A stretch of DNA of 60,537 nt, counting the filler, from Asterionella formosa (Eukaryota): NCBI GenBank assembly GCA_002256025.1. It is 7 parts of 7 records of this genome, joined end to end, with 100 filler letters (N's around TTAATTAATTAA, not from the genome) between each part and the next. Parts side by side here need not be neighbours in the genome. Positions count along the whole stretch, not along the records: positions 1 to 8,575 come from NKIB01012004.1; 6 more parts are not named here. One strand, given 5' to 3'. The notes beneath the pieces were generated by a model. The model did no database searches, had not been told where the DNA came from, and saw only the letters and a list, made by a program, of their open reading frames with translations. Within the stretch, counting starts at the first letter, position 1, and the number at the start of each line of letters is the position of its first letter. Below are positions 1-42,286 of the stretch, one piece after another. Position numbers and translations under genes: made by a program.

Positions 1-590
1 CGACAATCACATAATTATTTTTAAACTCACCATTTTGATTATTCCATTTGTTCTTTCCTTTGTTCGTTTTCTTTGCTTCAACTTTCGTCCAATCGTTTTC
101 GTTGTAGTCGTCGATCGATTGTTGTGTAGTGTTCTCTTGTAGTTGCTCGATTTCCATCACCGTTTGCTTGATGATCGGATTACCTTCGACATGATACATT
201 GCTCCGAGTTTTCGAGTTTTGTCTCTTTTGCAGGTTAGAAAACCGCTCTTGTTTCGTATCGTCATCCTATCGTCCTCGAAGATCACTTGATTACCCTTGT
301 CGATCATTCTAGAGACACTGATGATGTTCTGCTTGAACTCCGGTGCATAAAGCACATCGGTGAGTTTCAAGCATTTTCCTTCGTCCGTAGTCGTCAGGGT
401 CACAGTACCAGAGACAGTTGATACTATCTCAGTTCCATTCCCTACCACGACCGTTTCACTCACTTGTTTCTTGTCTTCCATCATGCGCACGTCCGTGCAG
501 ATGTGAACAGTAGCACCGCTGTCTAACAACCAGCGATTTCTGACGTCACGAGCGAGGTTGACTTCCTCGTTGTAACTAATTTCGACGCAC
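1..590 (-). CDS. pol: Copia Pol N-terminus (aspartic protease), in the -1 frame relative to gag; partial
   Basis: Manual translation CVEISYNEEVNLARDVRNRWLLDSGATVHICTD..., with no stop down to base 1. Confidence 0.85.
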
Positions 591-1536
591 GTGCGACGAA
601 CATTCCTTGCTGGGTAGATGTAGTCGTGTTGTTCTCTTCGTTTCTATTATTCTTAGATGCACTGTTACTGGTGCACTCACTTGCGTAGTGTCCCATGCGT
701 TGGCACTTGAAACACTTGATCGTTTTCCTCTTTTCTTTCTGCTCAGGAGTGAGCTCCTTTTTGTCGGCACTATTGCCCTTGCTGCGACATTCAGCCGCCT
801 TGTGGCCATACTTGCCACACTTACGACAGTCACCTTTGAACTTCCCTTTCGTGTAGAAGGCCTGTTCACTCTTGTTCTTGTCAGTCGTTTTGACGTCATC
901 CCGGACATATAGATCGTAGTAGTCCCGGATGTCTGTCTTAATCTCTTCGACCGTTAGCGTGTTGCGCGCCAGGCCGAACCTTCCTACTACCAAACTCTTG
1001 TAGCTTTCAGGTAGGTTGTTGATCATGTGTGCCACATAGGCACCATCCGAAACGGCAGAGCTTGTATTGCCCAATCGTTCCCGGATTCGATCCAACTCCA
1101 CATACCAGCTGTCGGGGTTCTCGTTTTCCTCTAGAGTGCACTTCGTCCATTGGTGGGACAAGGCAATGACGTTCGCCATGTTGCCTGACTCATACGTCGA
1201 AATGAGCTTGTCCCATGCTTCTTTAGCATTGCTGTTAGGAAACTCGGCACTTCTTGCATTATTTACGTGTCCGAATGGCCCACTCTGGCATGCCATTATC
1301 AGACTTGCGTAAGCAACTGTGTTGCTCCTTCGGATGCGTCTCTCGTCAGCATCCGACAACACGATCGTATCGCCCTTTAGGTCTTTCTCTCCTCTTGGTA
1401 GTTCGTCACCGTTAAGTATTTCTTGAAAGTTCTTGTAGCACGCGTATGCGAGAAACTTCGCTTTCCACATGTGCCATTTAGCATCTTGCCCATCGAATGT
1501 TGGCAACCTCACTGACGTGTCTTCGTCACTTCCCAT
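523..1536 (-). CDS. gag: Copia Gag with two zinc knuckles
   Basis: 337-aa ORF with FDG..W..WK N-terminus, AKEAWDKL, NNLPESY and 2x CX2CX4HX4C. Confidence 0.9.
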   Translation of the reverse strand: MGSDEDTSVRLPTFDGQDAKWHMWKAKFLAYACYKNFQEILNGDELPRGEKDLKGDTIVLSDADERRIRRSNTVAYASLIMACQSGPFGHVNNARSAEFPNSNAKEAWDKLISTYESGNMANVIALSHQWTKCTLEENENPDSWYVELDRIRERLGNTSSAVSDGAYVAHMINNLPESYKSLVVGRFGLARNTLTVEEIKTDIRDYYDLYVRDDVKTTDKNKSEQAFYTKGKFKGDCRKCGKYGHKAAECRSKGNSADKKELTPEQKEKRKTIKCFKCQRMGHYASECTSNSASKNNRNEENNTTTSTQQGMFVARASKLVTTRKSTSLVTSEIAGC

Positions 1537-1580
1537 CGTTCCTGAGTAGCCTGTGGCCTTAAAGTGGACGCTTTAAAGCG

Positions 1581-1959
1581 TGTTGAAAGGTCTCGTACTC
1601 CTTCCCGTCTGACGGGTTCCTCTTACGTAGAACTTACCTGCTATACCACTAGTATTGTTATCTTCTTTCTGCTGCTAGCCTTCGTGCTAGTTTTCGTTAT
1701 TGACCTTACTCTGTCAATTCTCACTGTTTCTTAATTATAAGATTAAACTAAAACTAAGTTTCAATCCCATTCATCACACTTCGAGAACCTGTTCTTCGTG
1801 TTCCCTTTTCGTTGATGTAAACCTTCTTCTGATTGATCTAAGACATCAATCTCGTTAGCAAGCTTCTTGACATGGGAACGCACCATTTGACTCATTGGAC
1901 TATAGTCGAGTCCACAGTCCTTGTGACTCATTATAGCCATTGATGCTATATTCTTGACA
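1581..1959 (-). repeat. 5' LTR (~379 bp) of the Copia element
   Basis: Minus-strand termini TGTCAAGAA...CCTTTCAACA. Both ends coincide with the limits of homology to the solo copy at 41889-42286. Confidence 0.8.
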
Positions 1960-2629
1960 TACCTCCTCTGGGCCCCGTCCCCCCTCCCGATACGGCAGCA
2001 CTGACTGCAAGAACTGCTCATGCATCGGATGCGGTGACCAAAAAATCACCACTACAACGAACAGCGACAGAAAACAACACTATAATAATCGATTTTGGGG
2101 CCGAGTACTCTCTCCTAACAGCGAAGCCCCTCTTCGAACTCAATTACAATGTGCCGACAACCACGAATACAACTGACAAACATGGAGACAACGCTACTAC
2201 AACTGACGATATCTGAGATGATTGGAACAACAAGAAAAATATAGTAATGGAACACAATATAATGGCCGCAGGCGCAAACCGCAATCGCAATACCGCAACA
2301 CACACAAATCTCACAAGCCTTCAAAATGCATTCATCTTCTCAAATCAGCGTGATCAGATCAACCTGACAAACGCAGCAACTGTTTTCACCATGCTGGACA
2401 CTTTCTTGCCCAATACAGTGGTGATTGCTTCGCGACAATCTCGTGCATCAGACAAGATGGATACAGCTTCCTCCTTCCAGCGCAACACTACAGCAAACAA
2501 TGTTACAACATTAGATTTGACAGCCGATCGACTCTAGTAGTACTCACTTTCCCCTGCTGCAACGGCTGACCCTGTTATATTCGAAGAAAATAATAACAAT
2601 AGATATGAATACAGTCAACAAAACAACGA

Positions 2630-4639: not shown

Positions 4640-5595
4640 TAAAGTAGTATTGAAACTACATACAGCAACGTAGATTCAATACAAACGTATAAATGACATC
4701 ATTTGTTTTGTTTGAACACGAACTATGTGCATACATATTGGCATACTCCTGATTTATATATGTGGTGTGAAGCAAATTGTGTCTACAAACAGCAACATAA
4801 ATGTAGCTAAATAAGATGTTTAAATTTCAATTTTGTTGTTTTAAAATGGAACTCTATCAATCTGGCACCAATTACTAGTATTCAATTCAAATATTTAAAT
4901 GGACGCTCGAATCATGGGAATTCATAGAAGCAAACTCCTTGCTTGTTCCCTGCTGTTTTTACAACCCTACTAGCAGTCAGTGTTTTCTACAAAATAGGGT
5001 TAAGCCGGGGCCGCAACCTTAAGTACAGTACCAGGTAGTAGAGCAGACCTGATAAGCCAACATGTTGCTCCAGTAATGCTCGATCACGACTCCAGACATC
5101 ATGCGGTCGACTTTCAGGAGTATGCATGTGTTCGTACATGTACCTCCCGGTATACTGGATAATGAAAGAGTTATTTCAAGAACCACAGTACAGCGTGTAA
5201 CAAACCTGGAGTTAGGGACATGTGAGGTAAAACAGCGCTGTATGGAGTATGACAAGCGACTTACTGACATCATCAAAGATGATAATCACACCATAGAGGA
5301 GCAGCAGGATGAGCGTCAGTTACAGGAATGGGATGGCTACACCGAAGATAATCATACAGAATTCGCAACACAATTCAATGCAGTCATATCCGATTCAAGT
5401 ATTCCAGAAGTGGATGAAACCTTTACTCTTGTCACCTTTCATGATACATACCTCAACAAGAAATTAGCATTGACAAGGGGAGCGAACGACAATTGCGATG
5501 TACAAGTTGGTAAAGTTAGAAAAGCGGCTATGCATGTGATGCAGAAGGACAACCGATTGGTTTGGCAAATGAGAACCCTTTATTAGACACGAGAG

Positions 5596-8575: not shown

Positions 8576-8675
8576 NNNNNNNNNNNNNNNNNNNNNNNNN
8601 NNNNNNNNNNNNNNNNNNNTTAATTAATTAANNNNNNNNNNNNNNNNNNNNNNNNNNNNNNNNNNNNNNNNNNNN
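8576..8675. other. Artificial contig linker (N44-TTAATTAATTAA-N44); also at ~17264, 25932, 34596, 43247 and 51896
   Basis: Six identical 100-bp spacers with stop codons in all six frames. Confidence 0.98.
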
Positions 8676-26669: not shown

Positions 26670-29292
26670 ATGTAGGCGAGGACTGATTCTGATTGGCTCA
26701 GGCTATGATACTGCTCACTTAGACTAGATAGAAATGACCCTGCAAGATAACCGTCTTGCCCACGTAGACAAGGAGTAATGCGTTGCGGTACTCTGTTTGT
26801 TCTGATGCTACGCCTCTGTGCTGGTGGGCGAGGAGACATTTGGGACAGCATCTCCACGTGTTCTTGCTCCACTCCTGTTCCTTGCGGAATGTTCTCTTGT
26901 GGTTCCCGTGACACTACTGTTCCTGGTGGAATGGTCACTGCCGATTCTTGTACCAATCTAGTGGGGTGGTAGCCTATGCAGCCACTTGTTAGCATCCACT
27001 GCATCAATGTATTTGTCATCTTTAATGACCGACCCAATGACTGGATATTTGGAATGTACTAACCCACTTGCTTTCGCTGCGATGACTAAACGATCTGACC
27101 CAGACTCTCCAAGATATCACGAAGCAATGGCAAGCATTGATTCTGAATCATTTAAGGAAGCGATGGTAGCAGAAATAAATGCTCTTACGGCAAAGAATAC
27201 ATGGACTGTAATACCACGGGCATCCATTTCTGGCAAAAATGTTCTACCAGGAACATGGGCATTTAAGAGGAAGAGATTTCATGACGGTCGTCTTCGAAAG
27301 TGTAAAGCACGGTTTTGTGTCCGTGGTGATAAGCAAGTCGAAGGCGTTGACTACTTCGAAATGTATGCACCAGTGGTACAATGGTCTACAGTGAGATGCT
27401 TACTCATAATGTCGATTGTGTTGGACCTAAAGACACAACAAATCGACTATATTACAATGTCAAGCAGAAATTGAAGAAGAAGTCTACGTGGAGTTACCTA
27501 AAGACTTTGGTGACAAGCAAGGGCGCGATATGGTTCTTAAACTAAATAAGTCGCTCTATGGTACAAAAACAGGCTCCACGGGCTTGGTTCTTGAAACTTA
27601 AAGAAAGTCTGGAAGATCGCGGTTTCCACCAATCTAAATTGGATGCATGTTTCTTTATTCACCCAGATATGGTGTACCTAAACTATGTAGATGATGGGAT
27701 ACTAATTGGAAAAAATGGTCCCAAGATTGAATCCATGATTGATGATCTCAGTACAACACTTGAGCTAACAAGAGAAGGAGACCTTTCGGCTTTCTTAGGA
27801 ATACAAATTGACAAGATTGAGAATGGCTCTTTAAGGCTGACACAGGAAGGCTTAATCAAGCGAGTGTTAGAAGCTACAAAAATGCAAGAATGCAGACCCA
27901 CAATGACACCAGCTGTCAAGGATACATTGGGTGCAGATGTTGATGGAGAACCGGCAGAAGAACAATGGAACTATAGGTCCGTGGTGGGAATGCTATTATA
28001 CTTGGCATCAAACTCGCGACCAGACATAGCCTTTGCAGTACATCAGTGTGCTCGTTTCTCCCATTGTCCTATGGTATCACATGAAGGGGCAATTAAGAGG
28101 ATCTGCCGCTATCTGAAAGGAACTATGAAAGAAGGAATTGTTTTCACACCTTCTGAGGAACTTGCAATAGATTGCTATGTAGATTCTGACTTTGCGGGTT
28201 TGTATGGTACTGAGGATTCTCATGATCCGATTTGCGCAAAGTCCAGGACAGGATACGTCATAACGTTAGCAGGATGTCCGCTACTATGGGTATCAAAGCT
28301 ACAGACCACTATAGCCCTATCTACTATGGAAGCAGAATACCAGGCTTTATCAGCAAGTTGTCAGGACCTAATCCCATTACGACATATTTGCAAGGAAGCC
28401 TCAGATGCCCTGAAGATAAATGGACATTTCATAGTACGATCACACTCGAAATATATGAAGATAATAGTGCATGTTTGTCTCAAGCAACAATGCCCAAAAT
28501 GACGCCACGTACAAAACATATAGCAGTGGCTTATCATTGGTTTCGAGAATATGTATTGTCGGGAGACATTGAAGTCTTGAAAATTGATACTACGAAGCAA
28601 CTTGCGGACATTTTCACAAAGGGCTTGGTGCAGTAAGATTTACAGCAATACGCAAGCTGCTGTGTGGTTGGTAAGCAACTTTCTTCTGCTGAGAGGGAGA
28701 GTTGAAACACAGAAGAATTCTTGATCCCTGATTCCCAGTTAGGTCTCCACTTTGCGTGAAGACAACATTTCCCTACTAGTCGTTGTGTTTGATGGAACAA
28801 CGCACAATTCAATACCAAGCTTTATAACCTTCAGACATTTGATAAAGAACAATGTTGAAGGGCGAATTCTATCAAGTTTTCCCTATGTTTACCAAACAAA
28901 CTTGGTAAACCCTAAACTACGAATGATTGGAGAGACAAATCAGTTCTGTCTAAAGCATTGAAGAACAGTCGAATCATCCTATTAAAGGATTGAGGAACAA
29001 TCCAATCATCATATTGCAGATACCTGAAAAAGTATCTCAGTAGAGGAACATCTATGTCCTAGAATCTATCTAGGCTAGATGGATATACATGTTACAAGGA
29101 AGAGGATGTAATCTACTTCGCTACAGCAGTAGGAACTACGAAGAACCTTGCCTCCAAGGAACAAAGAACAAATTCATTTCAGAAACATGTAGGAGTTGCC
29201 ATGTTTCAATCGAAACTACATTTCAAAATTACATTTAGTTTAAGCTCACTCTTTTAGAAAACACACAAGTGAAACTACTAAGATTGTCAACA
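26670..29292 (+). mobile_element. Copia element, 3' half (inverted linker piece, RT, RNase H, PPT, 3' LTR)
   Basis: WAFKRKR...KARFCVRGDKQ, YAPVVQWSTVR, YVDDG, SRPDIAFAVHQ, YVDSDFAG and RTKHI...QLADIFTKGL, with few frameshifts. PPT GAGAGGGAG at 28691. Confidence 0.93.
28700..29292 (+). repeat. 3' LTR (~593 bp)
   Basis: (A)GTTGA directly after the PPT and TCAACA at 29287-29292, i.e. a TGTTGA/TCAACA terminal inverted repeat with the first base changed. Confidence 0.65.
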
Positions 29293-41888: not shown

Positions 41889-42286
41889 TGTTGGAAAGGT
41901 CCGTAGTCCTTCCCACAGGCTGGGTCTCTTCATGTAGGCGCTTAAGTACTAGTGGTACTACCAAGTACCACTTACTTTCTCTCTGCTCTGCTTCTAGCCT
42001 TTCTGCTAGATAAACTGATTGACTTTCCTGTCAACTAACACACTATTTCCTCAATTGATAATATTAAATAAAATTATAAGCTAAACTAAATGTTTCCTTT
42101 CCATGCATCTTTGCTTCCCGCAAAGTCGTTGTAAGTCTCTCCTTGAATTTTCCACAAAAACATTTCCATAGAAACCTTCAATCTTTGATCTCGTTTGATA
42201 GCTGATTGACATGGCAATGCAAGATTCGACTCGTTGGATTACAATCGAGTCCACAACCCTCGTGACTCGAGCTAATATTCGTGACA
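41889..42286 (-). repeat. Solo LTR related to the LTR at 1581-1959
   Basis: TGTTGGAAAGGTCCGTAGTCCTTCCC vs TGTTGAAAGGTCTCGTACTCCTTCCC; GACTCGTTGGATTACAATCGAGTCCACA vs GACTCATTGGACTATAGTCGAGTCCACA; end ATATTCGTGACA vs ATATTCTTGACA. Confidence 0.85.

Follow-up and report, generated by a model that had tools for sequence, protein, structure and literature searches.

We analysed a window of 60,537 nucleotides from the Asterionella formosa assembly GCA_002256025.1. A Ty1/copia element occupies the minus strand of positions 1-1959; the window start truncates it, so that its 5′ part is present, with a long terminal repeat (LTR), a short leader, a gag open reading frame and the beginning of pol (Table 1). 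For comparison, relatives were collected by aligning the gag N-terminus against metagenome contigs, which yielded six loci (L001-L006) from 223 pattern matches. For depth, variants and contig ends, the contigs of four public runs were placed on window positions 1-2600.

Table 1. Positions of the element's features and of a related lone LTR in the window.
Feature	Position	Strand	Description
5′ LTR	1581..1959	-	379 bp, TGTCAAG...CTTTCAACA; delimited by depth, loose contig ends, solo-LTR alignment and the polypurine tract in relatives
Leader, 44 nt	1537..1580	-	LTR to gag ATG (1536); begins CGCTTTAAAGCGTCCACTTTAAGGCCACAGGCTACTCAGGAACG
12-nt perfect palindrome CGCTTTAAAGCG	1569..1580	-	right after the LTR-terminal CA; candidate minus-strand priming site, counterpart of CHSeq1
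Downstream segment CTTTAAGGC	1556..1564	-	inverse-complementary to 1571-1579; comparable to CHSeq2
gag ORF, 337 aa	523..1536	-	Pfam Retrotran_gag_2 and two CCHC zinc knuckles (2x zf-CCHC)
pol start, protease beta-barrel (Pol_BBD)	2..601	-	in the -1 frame with respect to gag; truncated at the window edge
Lone LTR, sister family	41889..42286	-	86% identity to the whole 406-nt LTR of L003

The element, its LTR and its coding region

The inner edge of the LTR, which a preliminary description of this DNA had placed at 1581 by means of the solo homolog, is borne out by three independent lines of evidence. The sister-family solo LTR has the same CAACA end, after which the two sequences diverge; summed contig depth is higher in the five bins spanning 1567-2001, with the LTR inside them, than on either side; and loose contig ends occur before 1581 (X1, 20; X3, 2; X13, 2), with many also behind 1959/1960. 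The terminal letters ahead of this edge are ...CCTTTCAACA, and the LTR, from end to end, reads TGTCAAG...TTTCAACA. The termini are of the TG...CA type and a polypurine tract precedes the 3′ LTR in L001-L003, as expected of Ty1/copia elements; in these three loci the tract, GAGGAGGA or GGGGAGGA, adjoins TGTCAAG directly. Upstream of the 5′ LTR, no pol homology was found. The host flank just outside it (1960-1970, minus strand) is GAGGAGGTA, which resembles the polypurine tract GAGGAGGA of the family; the likeness could be a coincidence or reflect a target preference. Just beyond the element, positions 2625-2992 contain direct repeats with a period of ~195 nt and 75-85% identity.

The lone LTR at 41889-42286 is of the same type as the LTRs of L002-L004. 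The 12-nt palindrome does not follow it (an 8-nt palindrome 3 nt past its end was taken as chance). It is flanked by the unlike 5-bp sequences ATACC and CCCGG and thus lacks the target-site duplication of a simple solo LTR. The end of U5 (the last ~26 nt; window 1591-1606 and relatives), with the pattern GAGTAC..AGA..CTTT.AACA, is kept even at 29% gag identity. In the sister family, the GAGTAC of U5 can pair with a GTACTC just ahead of the ATG, so that the palindrome is enclosed.

In the window copy, gag stops at 523-525, and a one-base offset near 592-601 (minus strand) separates the frame of gag from that of pol. At this same place, other copies are longer or shorter by 1 or 4 letters, and a single continuous gag-pol frame is present in P0003, L001 (1546 aa) and L002 (1529 aa). 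Thus, the window copy carries a frame-breaking length change, and the offset does not represent programmed frameshifting. The order of motifs in L001 and L002 is protease, integrase (HHCC), reverse transcriptase (YVDD; identified by motif) and RNase H, which, together with the Pfam matches in the window copy, is the domain composition of Ty1/copia elements. The motifs themselves are two C2C4H4C knuckles, DSGA, KARLVV, DVEAAF, YVDD, DSDW and ADI(L/M)TK. The pol frame of the relatives extends ~190 nt into the 3′ LTR, and the polypurine tract lies inside the coding sequence: residues 1483-1546 of the L001 polyprotein match window LTR positions 1958-1767 at 100% identity (L001 positions 4697-4893, window 1761-1958, minus strand).

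The stretch or part of it is contained in 20 of the 24 listed runs (15 studies), which are annotated as freshwater, lake, estuary and 'algae' and include six RNA libraries, and thousands of near-identical contigs stack on the element region. The host is aquatic, in all probability an alga, and not a Pezizomycotina fungus. The element had been described as looking young, with long intact frames. The family as a whole does look young, given its many near-identical copies and their presence in RNA libraries; intact frames were found in L001 and L002 and not in the window copy. A decayed fragment of a different Copia family lies elsewhere in the window (27094-28627, plus strand; RVT_2; 25-34% identity to the pol of L001 and L006). 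No LTR was detected at this fragment, which was therefore left out of the comparison.

A palindrome at the position of the primer-binding site

On the minus strand, the junction reads ...CCTTTCAACA / CGCTTTAAAGCG / TCCA / CTTTAAGGC / CACAGGCTACTCAGGAACG / ATG. The preliminary description had noted here a perfect 14-nt palindrome, the lack of a TGG-starting primer-binding site (PBS) and a gag ATG ~45 nt further inward, and all three are confirmed: the palindrome, ACGCTTTAAAGCGT (1581-1568), consists of the 12-nt core (1580-1569) plus the flanking A1581 and T1568; TGG occurs nowhere in the leader; and the leader is 44 nt long. The 12-mer CGCTTTAAAGCG occurs once in the whole window, even with one mismatch allowed. 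Just outside the palindrome, at position 1567, most copies in three runs read T where the window has C (minus strand). This is the sole variant within 1556-1581 among the 40 variants listed, with 263 more beyond these.

Perfect 12-nt palindromes occur in the window at a rate of ~5.5e-4 per position (33 versus 17.4 +/- 4.3 expected from 30 dinucleotide shuffles). This rate is low, and therefore a palindrome that exactly adjoins the LTR is improbable by chance. The counts leave out pairs of 44-N runs around TTAATTAATTAA (8576-8675 and five places ~8.7 kb apart), which look like inserted masking and not like biology. Perfect 14-nt palindromes number 19, versus 5.0 +/- 1.9 expected from the same number of shuffles, and some of the palindromes in the window repeat (TATACCGGTATA and ACCATGCATGGT, twice each).

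The six related loci fall at increasing distances from the window copy. In L001 (gag identity 98%), the LTR ends in ...TTTCAACA and is followed by CGCTTTAAAGCG and then by TACCAC CTTTAAGGCC..., whereas the three loci of the sister family (L002, L003 and L004; gag 73-76%) have the LTR end ...ATTTCAACA, again followed by CGCTTTAAAGCG, and then GATAGGTTTGAAAGGGTACTCAAG and the ATG. The distant family is represented by L006 (gag 29%), with the LTR end ...CTTTAACA, the perfect palindrome CGTTTATAAACG and then AACC..., and by its sister L005 (gag 31%; pol frame broken), with the same LTR end ...CTTTAACA, TGTTTATAAACT and then G.... In L005, T..T at positions 1 and 12 breaks the outer pair and leaves a 10-nt palindrome. 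The post-LTR site is therefore palindromic in six of six related loci, over 12 nt in five and over 10 nt in the decayed L005, and in these loci, as in the window, the palindrome begins at the first base after the LTR. The window family and the sister family share an identical CGCTTTAAAGCG; their LTRs are 70-78% identical in the alignable parts, and their leaders beyond the 12-mer cannot be aligned. Across the loci, leaders are 36-46 nt long and contain no TGG; copies with a normal PBS had been named in the preliminary description as the case that would speak against it, and none of the TGG type was seen among the six loci.

The conservation and covariation of the nucleotides after the LTR, which that description had proposed to examine across family members, turned out to be informative. 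L006 differs from CGCTTTAAAGCG at four positions, which form two pairs of the dyad: 3 and 10 (C-G to T-A) and 6 and 7 (T-A to A-T). The probability that four changes make two complementary dyad pairs is 0.0034. In alignment A6, 35 of 36 cells pair, compared with 12-56% once the partners are displaced by 1-3 columns; two of the six pairs have changes on both sides, with the covariation representing effectively two independent lineages and each double change representing one event. As judged from these alignments, the self-complementarity of the post-LTR site shows the marks of selection. Furthermore, the dyad centre falls between two nucleotides, and TTAA and TATA, the four innermost letters of the two variants, are each self-complementary, so that the selected feature looks like two-fold symmetry over all 12 nt, the centre included. 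A self-complementary centre is needless for a hairpin loop, which argues for a full-length duplex (an RNA homoduplex or a DNA dyad) and against a small hairpin.

Searches of other contig collections added no usable relatives. Among viral contigs, none was found in 49 stretches by gag alignment or in 114 stretches by reverse transcriptase alignment; a polyprotein alignment gave three loci, with a match confined to the zinc-knuckle region, that were not used, and a degenerate DNA pattern (LTR end plus palindrome) gave 19 stretches, none of which codes for a relative, so that these matches were attributed to chance. Genome contigs gave one locus (L010, with a 2351-aa ORF), which matched in the knuckle region only, at 23%, and was left aside.

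The alternative hairpin suggested in the preliminary description does exist: 1579-1571 pairs with 1564-1556 over 9 bp, including one G-U pair, around a 6-nt loop (-9.0 kcal/mol). This hairpin is unexceptional (z = -1.2; 22 of 200 shuffles fold equally well). Its loop (1565-1570) varies among copies, and L001 keeps both arms around a different loop. With the downstream partner, the window family forms 9 bp free of mismatches, whereas L002-L004 form 8 pairs that an A x G mismatch interrupts; L006 lacks such a partner. The self-duplex of the palindrome has a predicted energy of about -21 kcal/mol in the window family and about -15 in L006, and cofolding places a palindrome-palindrome duplex at the dimer interface in four of five leaders; the energy gained on dimerisation is equalled by 15-24 of 200 shuffles, and the monomer leader folds have z-scores of -1.8 to +0.9. 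These energetics show what can pair and do not prove, or lend support to, a function.

Known priming systems and rival explanations

The preliminary description gave the background as priming from a tRNA or a tRNA half, with self-priming in the Tf1 lineage. This account is incomplete, as it misses the self-priming predicted for the TAR lineage of plant Copia elements (Neumann et al. 2019, who predict half-tRNA priming for other lineages; PMC6317226) and a palindromic site in fungi (PMC5445492). This site, the 'Conserved Hairpin Site' (CHS), was described by Donnart et al. (2017, BMC Genomics 18:410) in place of the PBS of GalEa Copia elements from fungi; all 44 families lack a PBS and have a palindrome at that place (PMC5445492). 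CHSeq1, CTGATCAGT or CTAATTAGT, directly follows the LTR and is palindromic when the final A of the LTR is counted, and CHSeq2 is its inverse complement, located 2-41 nt downstream, with a conserved A/A mismatch, in most families (PMC5445492). A downstream complement is listed for 37 families and not for six, and for Cegeo2 a sequence is given without an interval (PMC5445492). The authors report that they found no Tf1-type complement; they leave the palindromy unexplained and propose no mechanism (PMC5445492). A paper on bivalve TRIM elements cites Donnart et al. 2017, and the diatom CoDi paper holds nothing on priming sites (PMC2806351).

The site described here resembles the fungal CHS in several respects. 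There is no TGG-type PBS; the base that directly follows the 5′ LTR opens a palindrome (12 nt and perfect in the window and five of the six loci, as a counterpart of CHSeq1, and 10 nt in L005); in the window family, the final A of the LTR belongs to the palindrome, and an inverse complement follows a few nucleotides downstream, beyond a variable loop; and variants keep the dyad by paired changes. In both groups, the LTRs are of the TGT...CA form, and L001 and L002 have a single gag-pol frame, as the fungal elements do. Unlike in the fungal elements, the core comprises 12 nt rather than 9 nt plus A (CGCTTTAAAGCG and CGTTTATAAACG versus CTGATCAGT and CTAATTAGT), and the distant family lacks the downstream partner, which pairs perfectly in the window family and with an A x G instead of an A/A mismatch in the sister family. 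None of the four fungal GalEa marker motifs (C2C4C4H, KSRLV(I/V), QTDD and CQPEA; PMC5445492, Additional file 5) is present in L001 or L002, and neither a CQPEA nor a TRPDI-type match was found in these two loci. Given that the fungal markers all differ, the element lies outside the fungal GalEa subclade. Metazoan GalEa elements share KARLV, YVDD and AD..TK, which are generic motifs; in RNase H, DSDW differs from the SDAS-type motif of GalEa (PMC5445492). The paired G-to-A and C-to-T change in fungi could stem from repeat-induced point mutation, whereas the T-A to A-T change seen here is not explicable in this way. On sequence grounds, the element appears to be a variant of the published CHS kind, which looks and presumably works like a CHS-bearing Copia element.

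Several other explanations of the palindrome have to be weighed. We consider it scarcely credible that it is a chance palindrome or a decayed, functionless PBS: the window is about two-fold rich in 12-nt palindromes, but, at the low rate per position given above, chance would have to place one at an identical position three times, once per lineage, and supply the compensatory changes as well, in a family that is high-copy and found in RNA libraries. Self-priming in cis of the Tf1 type, in which the first bases of the transcript fold back onto the site, is the sole experimentally established tRNA-independent priming known for LTR elements. In Tf1 and Tf2 (Ty3/gypsy elements of fission yeast), reverse transcription starts without a tRNA, and the primer is RNA of the element itself, freed by an RNase H nick, which serves here as a working model only. 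A priming mode of this type is also predicted for the plant TAR lineage (PMC6317226). It requires, however, a transcript start complementary to the PBS, and no such complement was found in any of five LTRs: for five of five elements, the best LTR-site duplex does not surpass those of shuffled LTRs (window, -7.8 versus -10.1 +/- 1.8 kcal/mol). The 5′ end of the element's own transcript, to which the preliminary description had pointed as a possible partner, is thus without support, which speaks for excluding the Tf1 arrangement itself and not other forms of self-priming. Moreover, the 12-mer is found only once in the window, and palindromy is unneeded in such a mechanism; the Tf1 PBS, as described by Donnart et al., is not palindromic, in contrast to the site here (PMC5445492). 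We regard the Tf1-type explanation as very improbable.

Priming at the palindrome by a host small RNA that ends in, or is processed to, ...CGCUUUAAAGCG is a serious rival, although it seems to us somewhat unlikely, with a fragment of a class II tRNA (Leu/Ser) cut after the variable-arm hairpin, or another hairpin-ended RNA, as candidates. The palindrome would then mirror a host stem-loop, with the compensatory changes reflecting the form of this stem in another host. The variable arms of tRNAs can be short palindromes, and the occurrence of the same 12-mer in two families of one genome (the sister solo LTR is in the window) is expected if one host RNA is used. The anticodon and T arms of tRNAs are built as 5+7+5, with an odd centre, which the even centre of the dyad does not fit. 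Internal tRNA pieces do serve as primers in Copia elements, namely half tRNA-Met and half tRNA-Ile (PMC6317226), and FunCo1 uses an internal region of tRNA-Lys (PMC5445492). In the half-tRNA-primed copia, Ty5, Osser and Bianca-type elements, the PBS likewise lacks a TGG start and pairs with an internal tRNA segment (PMC6317226); however, half-tRNA sites mirror the anticodon stem-loop of tRNA-Met or tRNA-Ile, whereas the dyad here is even-centred and extends over the full 12 nt, unlike 5+7+5. Self-complementarity is not required of a loop, either, but the four letters at the centre have it here and in both fungal variants, and the leader past the 12-mer has no tRNA-like continuation: an Rfam scan of 1450-1700 with E values of up to 10 allowed gave a single match, to SNORD105 (E = 0.75; 16 bits versus a gathering threshold of 45), which was rejected as chance. 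The tRNA searches covered the window and loci L001-L006, in which ARAGORN found none; at the gathering threshold, Rfam gave no matches in the window. The palindrome might also serve the genomic RNA as a signal for dimer linkage or packaging, or be a DNA site for a dimeric protein, with priming by another route. Palindromes are the classic dimer initiators of retroviruses and Ty1 (PMC6844567, PMC5445492), and the retroviral and Ty1 DIS and PAL are likewise short perfect palindromes in the 5′ leader that are able to form an RNA-RNA homoduplex; the dimer interface obtained by cofolding is in line with such a signal, and the two-fold symmetry would suit a dimeric DNA-binding protein. Neither function, though, needs a start at the exact first post-LTR base, which is found in every family, and the leaders of 36-46 nt offer no other candidate PBS. 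In addition, known dimer-initiation palindromes sit in hairpin loops or elsewhere, beside a tRNA PBS and additional to it (PMC5445492), whereas the palindrome here occupies the position of the PBS. On balance, we judge a dimer or protein site to be quite unlikely.

A proposed mechanism and its implications

In LTR elements, the 3′ end of the primer has to pair at the first base after the LTR. The palindrome lies at exactly this base, which supports its reading as a priming site. From this position, the conservation of the site, its compensatory changes and the absence of both a TGG-type PBS and a Tf1-type complement, we propose, with about even confidence, that the palindrome adjoining the 5′ LTR is a tRNA-independent, CHS-type minus-strand priming site, for which the element's own RNA would supply the primer. 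The non-canonical priming suggested in the preliminary description is upheld to the extent that the site is real, lies at the PBS position, is not of the TGG type and has a dyad that appears selected, which fits such priming; a Tf1-type mechanism is without support.

Two routes to a primer can be envisaged. The palindrome might pair with the same palindrome on a co-packaged second genomic RNA (12-14 bp, about -15 to -21 kcal/mol), or the downstream complement (1564-1556) might fold back onto it. RNase H nicking in an RNA duplex is known from Tf1, and by analogy, the element's RNase H would presumably nick the paired segment at its 3′ edge; this would leave a 3′-OH opposite the first nucleotide after U5, from which extension would copy U5 and then R. 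A self-primer cut from the genomic RNA ruins that RNA as a template, so that a second packaged RNA would be needed. Alternatively, the downstream segment may serve to mask the site until packaging. Several observations weigh against own-RNA priming: the energetics are unremarkable, with the monomer folds and the dimer gain near those of shuffles; the covariation comes from essentially two lineages, and the outer pair is broken in L005; and the downstream complement is clear only in the window family, imperfect in L002-L004 and absent in L006. No strand-switch joint centred on the palindrome was found among the 15 best-supported of 34 contig joints. A more specific and rather doubtful version of the proposal is that a single 12-nt palindrome acts both as the dimer linkage and as the primer site, with the RNase H-nicked partner RNA priming reverse transcription.

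These results extend the CHS architecture beyond fungi: it occurs in samples of freshwater, estuarine and marine origin, in no fewer than three families. The compensatory changes, which include an A-T to T-A swap, constitute cleaner covariation than in fungi, and the apparent selection on the full 12-nt dyad, centre included, favours mechanisms built on a full-length duplex over those that need a simple hairpin. Given the high copy number, the intact relatives and the presence in RNA libraries, the primer could be mapped directly in a culturable host. LTR annotation pipelines that demand a tRNA-type PBS will miss or mis-score such elements. If the palindrome indeed combines dimer linkage with priming, it would represent a third priming mode of LTR retroelements, after tRNA priming and Tf1-type fold-back, and such a dual dimer and primer palindrome would be common to, or independently reached by, Copia elements in fungi and in aquatic protists or algae.
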